Positions 29,793 through 38,972 of a DNA stretch of 64,000 bases are shown here, piece by piece; the stretch's first letter is position 1, and each line of letters starts with the position of its first letter. The stretch lies in assembly GCF_003334315.1 (NCBI RefSeq), contig NZ_QOWR01000016.1; one strand, given 5' to 3'. The DNA comes from Escherichia coli. GTDB lineage: Bacteria; Pseudomonadota; Gammaproteobacteria; Enterobacterales; Enterobacteriaceae. The translations under genes were made by a program, and so were the position numbers. The notes beneath the pieces are model-generated. The model was not told the origin of the DNA. It made no database searches and worked only from the letters and a program-made list of their open reading frames with translations.

Positions 29793-29913
29793 CTTTCCCT
29801 TAGAGTCCTTTTTCAAATATACTGTGAAGACTTCGGCCTTCGTAGTGGGATTTGAAAAAATCCTTCTGGAAAGTGCTCCAGACCGCAGTTGCGGTTATAG
29901 GGTTCAGTTATAT

Positions 29914-29940
29914 AAAGCCCCGATTTATCGGGGTTTTTTG
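29914..29940 (+). terminator. Intrinsic terminator/attenuator between metY and rimP
   Basis: AAAGCCCCGATTTATCGGGGTTTTTTG hairpin plus T-tract. Confidence 0.7.
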
Positions 29941-29998
29941 TTATCTGACTACAGAATAACTGGGCTTTAGGCCCTTTTTTTATGTCTTGGGGGTGGGC

Positions 29999-30451
29999 TT
30001 GTCCACATTAGAGCAAAAATTAACAGAGATGATTACTGCGCCAGTTGAGGCCCTGGGTTTTGAACTGGTTGGCATCGAATTTATTCGCGGTCGCACATCC
30101 ACACTGCGCATCTATATTGATAGTGAAGATGGCATCAATGTTGATGATTGTGCTGATGTGAGCCACCAGGTAAGTGCTGTGCTGGATGTTGAAGATCCCA
30201 TCACCGTTGCTTATAACCTGGAAGTCTCCTCACCGGGTCTCGATCGCCCACTGTTCACGGCTGAACACTACGCCCGTTTTGTCGGAGAAGAGGTGACTCT
30301 GGTTCTCCGTATGGCGGTACAAAACCGTCGTAAATGGCAGGGCGTTATCAAAGCGGTAGACGGTGAAATGATCACAGTTACCGTCGAAGGTAAAGATGAA
30401 GTGTTCGCGCTGAGTAATATCCAGAAGGCGAACCTGGTTCCCCACTTTTAA
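29999..30451 (+). CDS. rimP: Ribosome maturation factor RimP
   Basis: 150-aa product (M)[24 protein letters not shown] from a TTG start; matches RimP (YhbC). Confidence 0.9.
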
Positions 30452-31990: not shown

Positions 31991-34663
31991 ATGACAGATG
32001 TAACGATTAAAACGCTGGCCGCAGAGCGACAGACCTCCGTGGAACGCCTGGTACAGCAATTTGCTGATGCAGGTATCCGGAAGTCTGCTGACGACTCTGT
32101 GTCTGCACAAGAGAAACAGACTTTGATTGACCACCTGAATCAGAAAAATTCAGGCCCGGACAAATTGACGCTGCAACGTAAAACACGCAGCACCCTTAAC
32201 ATTCCTGGTACCGGTGGAAAAAGCAAATCGGTACAAATCGAAGTCCGCAAGAAACGCACCTTTGTGAAACGCGATCCGCAAGAGGCTGAACGCCTTGCAG
32301 CGGAAGAGCAAGCGCAGCGTGAAGCGGAAGAGCAAGCCCGTCGTGAGGCAGAAGAATCGGCTAAACGCGAGGCGCAACAAAAAGCTGAACGTGAGGCCGC
32401 AGAACAAGCTAAGCGTGAAGCTGCTGAACAAGCGAAACGTGAAGCTGCGGAAAAAGACAAAGTGAGCAATCAACAAGACGATATGACTAAAAACGCCCAG
32501 GCTGAAAAAGCCCGCCGTGAGCAGGAAGCTGCAGAGCTCAAGCGTAAAGCTGAAGAAGAAGCGCGTCGTAAACTCGAAGAAGAAGCACGTCGCGTTGCTG
32601 AAGAAGCACGTCGTATGGCGGAAGAAAACAAATGGACTGATAACGCGGAACCGACTGAAGATTCCAGCGATTATCACGTCACTACTTCTCAACATGCTCG
32701 CCAGGCAGAAGACGAAAGCGATCGTGAAGTCGAAGGCGGCCGTGGCCGTGGTCGTAACGCGAAAGCAGCGCGTCCGAAGAAAGGCAACAAACACGCTGAA
32801 TCAAAAGCTGATCGTGAAGAAGCACGCGCAGCAGTACGTGGCGGTAAAGGCGGAAAACGTAAAGGTTCTTCGCTGCAGCAAGGCTTCCAGAAGCCTGCTC
32901 AGGCCGTTAACCGTGACGTTGTGATCGGCGAAACTATCACCGTTGGCGAACTGGCGAACAAGATGGCGGTTAAAGGCTCTCAGGTCATCAAAGCGATGAT
33001 GAAACTGGGCGCAATGGCAACCATCAACCAGGTTATCGATCAGGAAACCGCACAGCTGGTTGCTGAAGAGATGGGCCATAAAGTTATCCTGCGTCGTGAA
33101 AACGAGCTGGAAGAGGCGGTAATGAGCGACCGTGACACGGGTGCTGCGGCTGAACCGCGCGCGCCGGTTGTGACCATCATGGGTCACGTTGACCACGGTA
33201 AAACCTCTCTGCTGGACTACATTCGTTCAACGAAAGTGGCCTCTGGCGAAGCGGGCGGCATTACCCAGCACATTGGTGCATACCACGTTGAAACTGAAAA
33301 CGGCATGATCACCTTCCTGGACACCCCGGGGCACGCCGCGTTTACTTCAATGCGTGCTCGTGGTGCGCAGGCAACGGACATCGTAGTCCTGGTTGTTGCT
33401 GCCGACGACGGTGTGATGCCGCAGACCATCGAAGCAATCCAGCACGCGAAAGCGGCGCAGGTACCGGTGGTGGTTGCAGTGAACAAGATCGATAAACCAG
33501 AAGCTGATCCGGATCGCGTTAAGAACGAACTCTCCCAGTACGGCATCCTGCCGGAAGAGTGGGGCGGTGAAAGCCAGTTCGTACACGTATCTGCGAAAGC
33601 GGGTACCGGTATCGATGAACTGCTGGACGCTATCCTGCTGCAGGCGGAAGTTCTGGAGCTGAAAGCGGTACGTAAAGGTATGGCGAGCGGTGCGGTTATC
33701 GAATCCTTCCTCGATAAAGGTCGTGGTCCGGTTGCTACCGTTCTGGTACGTGAAGGTACTCTGCACAAGGGCGATATCGTTCTGTGTGGCTTCGAATACG
33801 GTCGTGTTCGTGCGATGCGTAACGAACTGGGTCAGGAAGTGCTGGAAGCGGGTCCGTCCATTCCGGTGGAAATCCTCGGCCTGTCCGGCGTACCGGCTGC
33901 GGGTGATGAAGTTACCGTTGTACGTGACGAGAAGAAAGCGCGTGAAGTTGCACTCTATCGTCAGGGTAAATTCCGCGAAGTTAAACTGGCGCGTCAGCAG
34001 AAATCTAAACTCGAGAACATGTTCGCCAACATGACCGAAGGCGAAGTTCACGAAGTGAATATCGTCCTGAAGGCAGACGTACAGGGTTCTGTCGAAGCGA
34101 TCTCCGACTCCTTGCTGAAACTGTCTACTGACGAAGTTAAAGTGAAGATCATCGGTTCTGGCGTAGGTGGTATCACCGAAACCGACGCCACCCTGGCTGC
34201 GGCGTCCAACGCCATCCTGGTTGGCTTTAACGTACGTGCTGATGCCTCTGCACGTAAAGTGATTGAAGCGGAAAGCCTGGATCTGCGTTACTACTCCGTC
34301 ATCTATAACCTGATTGACGAAGTGAAAGCGGCGATGAGCGGTATGCTGTCTCCGGAACTGAAACAGCAGATTATCGGTCTGGCGGAAGTTCGTGACGTGT
34401 TCAAATCGCCGAAATTTGGTGCCATCGCAGGCTGTATGGTTACCGAAGGTGTGGTTAAACGTCACAACCCGATCCGCGTTCTGCGTGACAACGTGGTTAT
34501 CTACGAAGGCGAGCTGGAGTCCCTGCGCCGCTTCAAAGATGACGTTAACGAAGTCCGTAACGGTATGGAATGTGGTATCGGCGTTAAGAACTACAACGAC
34601 GTCCGCACTGGCGATGTGATCGAAGTATTCGAAATCATCGAGATCCAACGTACCATTGCTTAA
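31991..34663 (+). CDS. infB: Translation initiation factor IF-2
   Basis: 890-aa [32 protein letters not shown] with repetitive charged N-terminal region and GTPase G-domain ([12 protein letters not shown]); matches IF2. Confidence 0.97.
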
Positions 34664-34681
34664 GGTTTTTAGGGTTCCATG

Positions 34682-34757
34682 CGGGATAAGGCGTTTACGC
34701 TGCATCCGGCATGGATTGCCTGATGTGACGCTGGCGCGTCTTATCAGGTCAACGTGA
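34682..34757. repeat. REP element between infB and rbfA
   Basis: CGGGATAAGGCGTTTACGCTGCATCCGGCA ... GCCTGATGTGACGCTGGCGCGTCTTATCAGGTC. Confidence 0.75.
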
Positions 34758-36590: not shown

Positions 36591-36606
36591 TTCTTGCGAG
36601 TTTCAG

Positions 36607-36635
36607 AAAAGGGGGCCTGAGTGGCCCCTTTTTTC
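36607..36635 (+). terminator. Intrinsic terminator after rpsO
   Basis: AAAAGGGGGCCTGAGTGGCCCCTTTTTTC. Confidence 0.8.
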
Positions 36636-36836
36636 AAGCTGACGGCAGCAATTCACTGGAAACTAATGTATTGTTGCTATGAATGATCTTCCGTTGCAGA
36701 GGTTCGCGCGGCTAATGAGAGGCTTTACCCACATAGAGCTGGGTTAGGGTTGTCATTAGTCGCGAGGATGCGCAGAAGATCGGGTATTAACACCAGTGCC
36801 GTAAGGTACTGTCTAAGAAAGAGAAAGGATATTACA
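36636..36836 (+). promoter_or_regulatory. pnp 5' leader (autoregulatory region with RNase III-processed stem-loop; sRNA SraG reported in this intergenic region)
   Basis: About 200-nt untranslated region between rpsO terminator and the UUG start of pnp; regulatory role is from published E. coli work, not seen directly. Confidence 0.5.
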
Positions 36837-38972
36837 TTGCTTAATCCGATCGTTCGTAAATTCCAGTACGGCCAACACACCGTGACTCTGGAAACCGGCA
36901 TGATGGCTCGTCAGGCTACTGCCGCTGTTATGGTTAGCATGGATGACACCGCGGTATTCGTTACCGTTGTTGGCCAGAAAAAAGCCAAACCAGGTCAGGA
37001 CTTCTTCCCACTGACCGTTAACTATCAGGAGCGTACCTACGCTGCTGGTCGTATCCCGGGTAGCTTCTTCCGTCGTGAAGGCCGCCCAAGCGAAGGCGAA
37101 ACCCTGATCGCGCGTCTGATTGACCGCCCGATTCGCCCGCTGTTCCCGGAAGGCTTCGTCAACGAAGTTCAGGTTATCGCCACCGTGGTTTCTGTTAACC
37201 CGCAAGTTAACCCGGATATCGTCGCGATGATTGGTGCTTCCGCAGCGCTGTCTCTGTCTGGTATTCCGTTCAATGGCCCGATTGGTGCTGCCCGCGTAGG
37301 TTACATCAATGACCAGTACGTACTGAACCCGACTCAGGACGAGCTGAAAGAGAGCAAACTGGATCTGGTTGTTGCCGGTACTGAAGCCGCTGTACTGATG
37401 GTTGAATCTGAAGCTCAACTGCTGAGCGAAGACCAGATGCTGGGCGCAGTAGTGTTCGGTCATGAACAACAGCAGGTTGTTATTCAGAACATCAATGAAC
37501 TGGTGAAAGAAGCCGGTAAACCGCGTTGGGACTGGCAGCCGGAGCCGGTAAACGAAGCGCTAAACGCGCGCGTTGCTGCACTGGCTGAAGCTCGCCTGAG
37601 CGATGCTTACCGCATCACCGACAAACAAGAGCGTTATGCGCAGGTTGATGTCATCAAATCTGAAACCATCGCGACGCTGCTTGCTGAAGACGAAACCCTG
37701 GACGAAAACGAACTGGGTGAAATTCTGCACGCGATCGAGAAAAACGTTGTTCGTAGCCGCGTACTGGCAGGCGAACCGCGTATCGACGGTCGTGAAAAAG
37801 ATATGATCCGTGGTCTGGATGTGCGTACTGGCGTGCTGCCGCGTACTCACGGTTCTGCGCTGTTCACCCGTGGTGAAACGCAGGCGCTGGTTACCGCAAC
37901 GCTGGGTACTGCTCGTGACGCGCAGGTTCTTGATGAACTGATGGGCGAGCGTACCGATACCTTCCTGTTCCACTACAACTTCCCTCCGTACTCCGTAGGC
38001 GAAACCGGCATGGTCGGTTCTCCGAAGCGTCGTGAAATTGGTCACGGTCGTCTGGCGAAGCGCGGCGTGCTGGCAGTCATGCCGGATATGGACAAATTCC
38101 CGTACACCGTACGTGTTGTGTCTGAAATCACTGAATCCAACGGTTCCTCTTCTATGGCTTCCGTGTGCGGCGCGTCTCTGGCGCTGATGGACGCAGGTGT
38201 GCCGATCAAAGCTGCCGTTGCGGGTATCGCAATGGGTCTGGTGAAAGAAGGCGACAACTACGTTGTACTGTCTGACATTTTGGGCGACGAAGATCACCTG
38301 GGCGATATGGACTTCAAAGTTGCAGGTTCCCGCGACGGTATCTCTGCACTGCAGATGGATATCAAAATTGAAGGTATCACCAAAGAGATCATGCAGGTTG
38401 CGCTGAACCAGGCTAAAGGTGCGCGTCTGCATATCCTGGGCGTAATGGAACAGGCGATCAACGCGCCGCGTGGCGATATCTCTGAGTTCGCACCGCGTAT
38501 CCATACCATCAAGATCAACCCGGACAAGATCAAAGATGTTATCGGTAAAGGCGGTTCTGTAATCCGTGCTCTGACCGAAGAAACTGGCACCACCATCGAA
38601 ATCGAAGATGACGGTACTGTGAAGATTGCAGCGACCGACGGCGAGAAAGCGAAACATGCTATTCGTCGTATCGAAGAGATCACTGCAGAAATCGAAGTGG
38701 GCCGCGTCTACACTGGTAAAGTGACCCGTATCGTTGACTTTGGCGCATTTGTTGCCATCGGCGGCGGTAAAGAAGGTCTGGTCCACATCTCTCAAATCGC
38801 TGACAAACGCGTTGAGAAAGTGACCGATTACCTGCAGATGGGTCAGGAAGTACCGGTGAAAGTTCTGGAAGTTGATCGCCAGGGCCGTATCCGTCTGAGC
38901 ATTAAAGAAGCGACTGAGCAGTCTCAACCTGCTGCAGCACCGGAAGCTCCGGCTGCTGAACAGGGCGAGTAA
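36837..38972 (+). CDS. pnp: Polynucleotide phosphorylase
   Basis: 711-aa product from TTG start, (M)[26 protein letters not shown]; track ORF 36750 is an upstream extension; matches PNPase including C-terminal KH/S1 region. Confidence 0.95.

Follow-up and report, generated by a model that had tools for sequence, protein, structure and literature searches.

Work on the autoregulation of the E. coli rpsO-pnp region is reportedly due to Portier, Regnier, Robert-Le Meur, Jarrige, Carzaniga and Park. The rpsO-pnp leader with its RNase III-dependent PNPase autoregulation is the same locus as the one analyzed here; the hairpin, the Shine-Dalgarno sequence (SD), the UUG and the terminator are identical, and no difference was found (PMC5029454). 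The published controls of pnp comprise RNase III, PNPase, RNase E, CsrA, S1 competition, and SraG, none of which acts via the identity of the start codon (Fontaine et al. 2016; PMC5029454). SraG (PsrO, RF00082), matched at full length on the minus strand, inhibits 30S binding to the pnp mRNA, with the published block lying at the pnp UUG (PMC5029454). It differs from the present subject in that its target is the pnp leader and not codon identity.

Another described system is the rimP leader (RF01770) of the metY-rimP-nusA-infB operon. The match to this family ends 18 nt before the rimP TTG and includes t1 and t2, but the family covers terminator/attenuator hairpins only and is silent on the UUG start. 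The autoregulation of infC (IF3) via AUU is similar in that a weak non-AUG start is found on a negative-feedback gene. In infC, the start codon is an operator because the regulator itself, IF3, discriminates the codon class, whereas IF3 accepts UUG and GUG as members of the canonical class. The resemblance of pnp to infC is superficial, and the published pnp regulators, unlike IF3, do not read the codon (PMC5029454). What the present analysis adds to the rpsO-pnp system is the distribution of the codon: UUG is fixed in Enterobacterales/Orbaceae, and GUG or AUG is used in other Gammaproteobacteria.

Start codons and ribosome-binding sites of pnp, rimP and ubiT

The window (the whole stretch of DNA analyzed, 64,000 nt) represents the E. 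coli metY-rimP-nusA-infB-rbfA-truB-rpsO-pnp … ubiVU/ubiT region. The pnp region matched 5,426 of the 5,426 complete E. coli genomes (100% identical). The RefSeq annotation of E. coli ER1709 was converted to window coordinates (window = locus L001 + 25299) and places the CDS starts of rimP, pnp, and ubiT exactly at 29999, 36837, and 46729, with product lengths of 150, 711, and 174 aa, respectively. The earlier note had proposed UUG starts for pnp (36837) and rimP (29999) and a GUG start for ubiT (46729); these codons are present there, and the RefSeq starts agree with them. Its further statement that the open reading frame track uses upstream ATGs was incorrect, as only pnp has an in-frame upstream ATG, and the three longest ORFs begin with TTG at 36750 (pnp), 29987 (rimP), and 46705 (ubiT).

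A total of 63 annotated CDS were mapped in the window, of which 59 start with ATG, two with TTG (rimP and pnp), and two with GTG (ubiT and diaA). The diaA start at 52196 on the minus strand was absent from the earlier list. In E. coli, about every sixth to tenth gene lacks an AUG start, so that such starts are common, and initiation at UUG or GUG is several-fold less efficient than at AUG. The probability of finding at least two TTG starts in 63 genes was 0.57, assuming about 3% TTG per gene. Clustering of non-AUG starts in the window was considered and rejected, since they were found in only 4 of the 63 CDS and there was no enrichment. The three non-AUG starts are an ordinary, already known feature because they had been annotated in E. 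coli before. They are of little importance beyond annotation hygiene: the longest-ORF rule misplaces the three starts, and the curated starts are right.

The reading preferred here, with a probability of about 90% for the explanation as a whole, is that these codons are the genuine, annotated starts of the three genes, with SD-positioned 30S subunits, near-cognate UUG or GUG, purifying selection, and leader control in the case of pnp. An SD located 5-8 nt upstream would position the 30S subunit at each codon, and the initiator tRNA would read the near-cognate UUG or GUG. The positions, SDs, conservation, hairpins, and lack of conserved alternative starts come from the present analysis; for pnp, the literature supplied the cleavage and the toeprint as well as what CsrA and SraG do.

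The pnp initiation codon (TTG, 36837-36839, plus strand; 711-aa PNPase) was assigned by sequence, translation, RefSeq, conservation, and a published toeprint. It is followed by CTT AAT CCG and lies 246 nt from the rpsO stop codon. The 30S/tRNAfMet toeprint was reported at +15 of the pnp UUG, and a TTG-to-TGA mutant of this start was used to block pnp translation (PMC5029454). The SD of pnp (AAGGA, 36825-36829, plus strand) is located 7 nt before the TTG and forms a duplex of -5.4 kcal/mol with the 16S 3' end. Its A-GG-A is conserved in the alignment of pnp leaders (A1), and a CsrA site overlaps it (PMC5029454).

The rimP initiation codon (TTG, 29999-30001, plus strand; 150-aa RimP), assigned by sequence, RefSeq, and conservation, is followed by TCC ACA TTA GAG, and the protein reads (M)STLEQKL. 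Its SD (GGGGGTG, 29989-29995, plus strand) has a spacing of 5 nt and a 16S 3' end duplex of -9.7 kcal/mol; Vibrio, Aeromonas, Idiomarina, and Rheinheimera carry GGAG-type motifs at the corresponding place. The rimP UUG is also overlapped, in a different frame, by an invariant ORF of nine codons beginning with ATG (29982-30011).

The ubiT initiation codon (GTG, 46729-46731, plus strand; 174-aa UbiT) was assigned on the same three grounds and has an in-frame TTG directly after it. The GTG is followed by TTG GAT AAA, and the protein reads (M)LDKLRSR. Since the codon after the GTG is TTC in two genera, the GTG and not the adjacent TTG is the conserved start. The SD of ubiT (AGGGAG, 46715-46720, plus strand) is located 8 nt before the GTG, with a duplex of -7.7 kcal/mol. 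The literature and supplement search found no in vivo start-site or N-terminal evidence for rimP or ubiT. The riboproteogenomics supplements (PMC11005335) contained no match for the pnp, rimP, or ubiT starts, and the INRI-seq tables had no entry for pnp or ubiT.

Leader structures and transcription starts

The earlier note had placed all three genes behind long structured leaders. This was confirmed for pnp, whose leader fold scored z = -4.5 against shuffled sequences, and for rimP (z = -4.1, RF01770), but not for ubiT, whose 5'UTRs are short and whose fold scored z = -1.0.

The long hairpin of the pnp leader (36685-36781, plus strand; 37 bp, loop 36732-36739) was delineated from minimum free energy folds, conservation, and the literature; its cleavage by RNase III sets PNPase autocontrol in motion. 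A hairpin of 34-43 bp is found at the equivalent place in nearly all Enterobacterales. According to 32 aligned sequences, its basal half is invariant, and compensatory changes affect 8 of the 23 predicted pairs and cluster in the apical half. RNase III sites were reported at +39 and +77 from P2 (PMC5029454), and an rnc-dependent RNA-seq cleavage peak annotated psrO/pnp was observed in vivo (PMC5371410). These reports support the earlier statement that the leader is the known site of RNase III and PNPase autoregulation; its length, given as roughly 200 nt, is closer to 160 nt. A simple promoter scan gave no sigma-70 consensus for pnp P2; the P2 start was therefore placed near 36678 from the published cleavage positions, which together with the hairpin loop give a P2-transcript leader of about 160 nt. 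A small second hairpin predicted by folding (36794-36811, plus strand) follows the RNase III hairpin and precedes the pnp SD. Its sequences in alignment A1 are variable and, by eye, seemingly self-complementary; RNAalifold made no call.

In the published control of pnp, which the preferred explanation adopts, the 37-bp hairpin is cut by RNase III, and the 5' strand of the leftover duplex is removed by PNPase. CsrA then occupies sites including the SD, and the poorly translated message is inactivated by RNase E, with further layers provided by SraG as an antisense sRNA and by competition involving S1.

The SraG (PsrO) gene, overlooked in the earlier note, spans most of the interval that the note had covered, on the minus strand (36607-36778; RF00082, 164.3 bits against a gathering threshold of 50, model positions 1-177, full length). 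Its transcription start has been re-mapped, which puts the actual 5' end 42 nt beyond the RF00082 match, near 36820 (PMC5029454). A bidirectional terminator (36599-36640), located by terminator scan and fold, serves both rpsO (as T1, plus strand) and SraG (minus strand), the two terminators being one element (PMC5029454).

The structured rimP leader (29809-29981, plus strand) was defined by its fold (z = -4.06), Rfam RF01770, motif positions, and the literature. The RF01770 match at 29881-29981 reached 102 bits against a gathering threshold of 47 (model positions 1-102). The leader contains a likely RNase III hairpin (29809-29859, plus strand), assigned from the spacing of the sites, and terminators t1 (29917-29939, plus strand) and t2 (29962-29981, plus strand), both assigned by motif position. 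The t1, t2, and RNase III sites of the metY-rimP leader have been described (PMC6511841), and an in vivo RNase III peak lies in the rimP-metY intergenic region (PMC5371410).

For ubiT, the FNR site F2 of the P2 promoter was located by its motif, TTGATTTATACCGC (46657-46670, plus strand). Published distances from F2 (33 nt and 19 nt; PMC10470549) put the transcription start of the FNR-dependent P2 near 46704 and that of P1 near 46637. The 5'UTR thus measures about 25 nt in the P2 transcript and about 91 nt in the P1 transcript. The region 46637-46750 folded no better than shuffled sequences, 34 of 200 shuffles being as good, and the Rfam scan gave no match in the ubiT leader.

Conservation of the weak codons and control of pnp

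The comparison of start codons across Enterobacteriaceae, suggested in the earlier note, was carried out on tables built from the tblastn register for 79 pnp, 57 rimP, and 37 ubiT loci, within 80 gammaproteobacterial loci. The pnp TTG was found in all Enterobacterales/Orbaceae loci (46/46), and other Gammaproteobacteria had GTG or ATG. The rimP TTG was present in 47 of 57 loci, with ATG in nine Vibrio, and the ubiT GTG in 36 of 37. Of about 5,420 complete E. coli genomes, none matched a 63-mer in which one of the three start codons was changed to ATG. Among the four-fold sites in fully conserved pnp codons, 1 of 31 was invariant, with a mean majority fraction of 0.61 (46 Enterobacterales/Orbaceae). 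The three non-AUG codons are invariant in large clades with saturated synonymous sites and are thus held by strong purifying selection across distantly related taxa; this is a small addition of comparative data.

Tentatively, the weak UUG may be a functional part of pnp autoregulation, as the earlier note had stated, and the UUG of rimP may have an analogous part in the control exerted by its leader; an AUG would then weaken or abolish repression. The two UUG genes, pnp and rimP, belong to one transcription unit and both lie behind RNase III-cleaved leader hairpins. The UUG is invariant across Enterobacterales despite saturated neutral sites, and ATG replaces TTG in both genes in Vibrio. Moreover, pnp control is a competition at the translation initiation region (CsrA, S1, and SraG versus 30S), which a slow codon could plausibly sensitise; the weak pnp codon would hold ribosome loading low, letting repressors and RNases compete. 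However, the published summary of pnp control omits start-codon identity (PMC5029454), and a test of the codon was not found in the literature searched. The full-text search for pnp and UUG returned PMC5029454 as the only relevant paper, UUG elsewhere occurring in unrelated contexts. The taxa also argue against such a role: insect-symbiont Pantoea kept the TTG with a decayed hairpin, Idiomarina has long hairpins with GTG, and several Vibrio have leader hairpins of 20-25 bp with an ATG start. A strict coupling of hairpin and weak codon across taxa was therefore rejected, given the Pantoea TTG without a hairpin, the Idiomarina hairpins with GTG and the Vibrio hairpins with ATG; the taxon-level association is suggestive, is confounded by phylogeny, and is based on two genes. 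In addition, rnc, another RNase III-autoregulated gene, starts with AUG.

Somewhat more doubtful is the proposal that selection maintains the pnp and rimP UUGs as parts of a control of expression gated by RNase III, or, in a more speculative variant, that the mini-ORF 29982-30011 modulates rimP initiation. If the UUGs were such parts, a UUG-to-AUG change would lower the autoregulatory gain beyond raising the expression level.

It is improbable that the non-AUG codons are neutral historical accidents without effect on expression. The commonness of non-AUG starts in E. coli and the lack of enrichment in the window are compatible with neutrality. Yet a single T-to-A or G-to-A change gives ATG, and the first base is nevertheless invariant in 46/46 pnp and 36/37 ubiT loci. 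It is also invariant in all E. coli genomes, whereas only 1/31 of the pnp four-fold sites is.

Upstream in-frame codons

The in-frame ATG located 23 codons before the pnp TTG (36768-36770, plus strand) would give a protein of 734 aa and was judged not to be a start. An older K-12 annotation reportedly used this 734-aa ORF. The ATG lies inside the 3' arm of the leader hairpin, and it has no SD spacing because GAGG abuts it directly. Apart from E. coli and E. albertii, just two loci have an in-frame ATG at or near -23 or -24 codons, and most genera have an in-frame stop between the equivalent of ATG 36768 and the pnp TTG. The 734-aa ORF was rejected on account of the toeprint at the UUG, the burial in the hairpin stem, and these stops.

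The alternative in-frame TTG 29987 and GTG 29993 of rimP are unusable as starts because the rimP SD overlaps them. Both are conserved equally with TTG 29999 within Enterobacterales, so the choice of TTG 29999 rests on SD geometry and distant taxa. Outside Enterobacterales, most taxa lack the upstream candidates, TTG 29999 is usually the sole start-capable in-frame codon nearby, and in several Vibrio the start is immediately preceded by an in-frame TAA. The TTGs upstream of ubiT (46705 and 46708) precede the SD and are missing in most genera; with the P2 transcript starting at about 46704, they sit at or before its first nucleotide.

Although the upstream codons of all three genes are in frame without an intervening stop in E. 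coli, it is highly improbable, and already largely refuted, that the annotation is wrong and that the real starts are ATG 36768 or TTG 36750 (pnp), TTG 29987 or GTG 29993 (rimP), and TTG 46705 or 46708 (ubiT). Such candidates are absent or interrupted by stops in most genera for pnp and ubiT, and for rimP they are conserved only in Enterobacterales. The sole INRI-seq entry among rimP, pnp, and ubiT is a minor out-of-frame ATT site located 20 nt into rimP.

Annotated start codons and alternative initiation sites

The 1-kb segment around the pnp start has 100% identity to many E. coli chromosomes, and each of the 5,426 complete E. coli genomes contains a match to it. According to the RefSeq annotation of strain ER1709 (window = position in the fetched ER1709 locus + 25299), the gene order is metY, rimP, nusA, infB, rbfA, truB, rpsO, pnp, nlpI, yrbN, deaD, mtr, yhbW, ubiV, ubiU (minus strand), ubiT, and yhbS. 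The plus-strand start codons are TTG for pnp (36837-36839; product of 711 aa), TTG for rimP (29999-30001; opening (M)STLEQKL, 150 aa), and GTG for ubiT (46729-46731; opening (M)LDKLRSR, 174 aa). The RefSeq CDS starts fall on exactly these bases, so the non-AUG starts named in the earlier note are confirmed; they are the current public annotation and already known, and the interpretation attached to them was partly supported. Among the 63 annotated CDSs mappable onto the window, 59 begin with ATG, two with TTG (rimP and pnp), and two with GTG (ubiT and diaA); the number of TTG starts is not above chance (P(≥2 in 63) = 0.57, assuming about 3% TTG per gene). The diaA GTG (52196, minus strand), preceded by AAGGA, is a fourth non-AUG start, absent from the earlier note. 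In infB, codon 158 is GTG (32462-32464, +) and codon 165 is ATG (32483-32485, +), which correspond to the internal starts known for the short IF2 isoforms. Detection of an internal infB initiation site by Ribo-RET has been reported. The infB-rbfA intergenic region, the described location of terminator t3, contains a match to the REP-derived nucleoid-associated RNA naRNA4 (Rfam RF02564, 68 bits; 34680-34750, +).

Upstream ATGs had been attributed to the ORF track; one was found in frame for pnp (36768), but rimP and ubiT have none, and the longest ORFs of the three genes begin with TTG at 36750, 29987, and 46705. The pnp ATG was rejected as a start: in E. coli it is part of the 3' arm of the pnp leader hairpin, immediately preceded by GAGG. 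Besides E. coli and E. albertii, just two other loci had an ATG at or close to 23 codons upstream, and most enterobacterial genera carry a stop in frame between the TTG and any upstream candidate. The in-frame rimP GTG (-2 codons) and TTG (-4 codons), conserved within Enterobacterales, were rejected as overlapping the Shine-Dalgarno (SD) sequence GGGGGTG (29989-29995, +; -9.7 kcal/mol) and missing from most non-enterobacterial loci; several Vibrio carry an in-frame TAA immediately before the rimP start. The upstream ubiT TTGs, also rejected, are located 5' of the SD; the TTG codon directly after the GTG is TTC in two genera. For the pnp UUG, a toeprint of 30S subunits and tRNAfMet 15 nt away has been published, and a TTG-to-TGA mutation served to block translation (PMC5029454).

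Start-codon conservation in Gammaproteobacteria

A sample of 80 gammaproteobacterial pnp loci, each taken with 10-kb flanks, was searched for the codon aligning with the first residue of the respective E. coli protein. The pnp start was TTG in 46/46 Enterobacterales and Orbaceae loci, GTG in Photobacterium, Aeromonas, Idiomarinaceae, other Alteromonadales, and some Pasteurellaceae, and ATG in most Vibrio and a few others. For rimP, 47 of 57 loci start with TTG and nine, all Vibrio, with ATG, the remaining locus being an alignment offset; ubiT began with GTG in 36 of 37. The two UUG genes shifted jointly in Vibrio: most of the loci compared (L056-L063, L072, and L076) have ATG for pnp and rimP, with ubiT staying GTG. 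Photobacterium combines a GTG pnp with a TTG rimP. In the 46 taxa with a TTG pnp start, the first position of that codon was never A, and among 31 four-fold degenerate sites lying in fully conserved codons, only one was invariant (mean majority fraction 0.61). No 63-mer with ATG at the pnp, rimP, or ubiT start was matched among about 5,420 E. coli genomes, the best hits all having one mismatch. All Enterobacterales and Vibrionaceae in the sample use the rare TTA for Leu4 of rimP (30008-30010), which suggests that the nucleotide sequence immediately downstream of the start is constrained.

Leaders of pnp, rimP, and ubiT

Long structured leaders, which had been proposed for all three genes, were found for pnp and rimP (fold energy against shuffled sequence, z = -4.5 and -4.1) but not for ubiT (z = -1.0). 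The 36636-36860 region folds at -77.7 kcal/mol, with 0/200 shuffles as good, around a predicted 37-bp core hairpin (36685-36781, +). This hairpin is the published RNase III substrate, which bears out the assignment of the interval to the RNase III/PNPase autoregulation leader; an rnc-dependent RNA-seq peak at MG1655 3311286 is annotated psrO/pnp (PMC5371410). Because the published RNase III cuts (+39/+77) must straddle the hairpin loop (36732-36739), the start of promoter P2 was placed near 36678. The leader length of roughly 200 nt should accordingly be corrected to 246 nt from the rpsO stop or about 160 nt from the presumed P2 start. Nearly all Enterobacterales carry a hairpin of 34-43 bp that ends 50-65 nt upstream of the TTG. 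In a 32-sequence alignment, its basal stem (TTCGCGCGGCTAATGA / TCATTAGTCGCGAGG) was invariant, and compensatory double changes affected 8/23 pairs, mostly in the apical half. Insect-symbiont Pantoea (L048, L049, and L070) retain the TTG, but only 11-15 bp of the hairpin are left, and the pnp intergenic region shows no excess of folding over shuffled sequence (z between -0.2 and -2.6). A separate 14-bp hairpin (36644-36678, +), between the rpsO terminator and the putative P2 start, would occur only in rpsO-pnp read-through transcripts.

The rimP leader (209 nt, metY to TTG) contains a predicted hairpin of roughly 20 bp (29809-29859, +), terminators t1 (29917-29939, +) and t2 (29962-29981, +), and a match to the Rfam rimP leader RF01770 (29881-29981, +; 102 bits vs a threshold of 47). 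Both terminators and two RNase III sites have been described (PMC6511841), and an RNase III peak lies at MG1655 3318176 in the rimP-metY intergenic region (PMC5371410). The rimP and pnp peaks are 6,890 nt apart and the hairpin centres 6,899 nt apart, therefore both peaks fall within the predicted hairpins. Directly after the t2 T-tract, a 9-codon ATG ORF (MSWGWACPH*; 29982-30011, +) with no SD upstream overlaps the rimP TTG out of frame, its TAG stop being formed in part by the Leu4 TTA. Its approximately 30 nt are essentially invariant in nearly all Enterobacterales sampled, with occasional single-base differences; the ATG is ACG in one insect-symbiont locus and missing in Vibrionaceae. The PIRT-seq candidate CDS115, a 48-aa GTG ORF with translation reported by a transposon-reporter screen and failed western blot validation (PMC12350097), maps to 29824-29970 (+), running through the likely RNase III hairpin and t1.

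The 208 nt between ubiU and ubiT form a divergent promoter region, in which the FNR site F2 was located at 46657-46670 (+). The ubiTp2 start is 33 nt downstream of F2 and the ubiTp1 start 19 nt upstream of it (PMC10470549), which gives 5'UTRs of about 25 nt and about 91 nt, respectively. The longer UTR had no fold excess over shuffles (34/200 as good), and an Rfam search of the ubiT upstream region gave no family match.

The UUG codon and other layers of pnp control

The sole non-trivial claim of the earlier note, that the weak UUG is part of pnp autoregulatory control, appears unlikely, with a probability of about 0.2-0.25. It is favoured by the strict conservation of the codon, by control acting through competition at the initiation region, by rimP likewise having UUG behind an RNase III-cleaved leader, and by the joint turn of both genes to ATG in Vibrio. 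However, the loss of the hairpin with TTG retained in symbiont Pantoea, long hairpins with GTG in Idiomarina, and 20-25 bp hairpins with ATG in several Vibrio are against it or neutral, and the taxon-level association of codon with hairpin is phylogenetically confounded.

Most of the pnp start interval is covered by the gene of the antisense sRNA SraG (PsrO; Rfam RF00082, 164 bits), absent from the earlier note, at 36607-36778, probably to about 36820, on the minus strand. Its 5' end was re-mapped 42 nt further upstream by Fontaine et al. (PMC5029454), that is, to about 36820, 17 nt from the pnp TTG. SraG pairing stops the 30S toeprint at the UUG and generates new RNase III cuts; further layers include RNase III, PNPase, RNase E, CsrA, and S1 competition, with CsrA binding two sites, one over the SD, only after processing (PMC5029454). 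Judging by the GGA-motif description, the invariant GAGGATG on the 3' side of the hairpin stem and AAGGA in the SD fit as candidate CsrA sites. SraG and rpsO have a bidirectional terminator in common.
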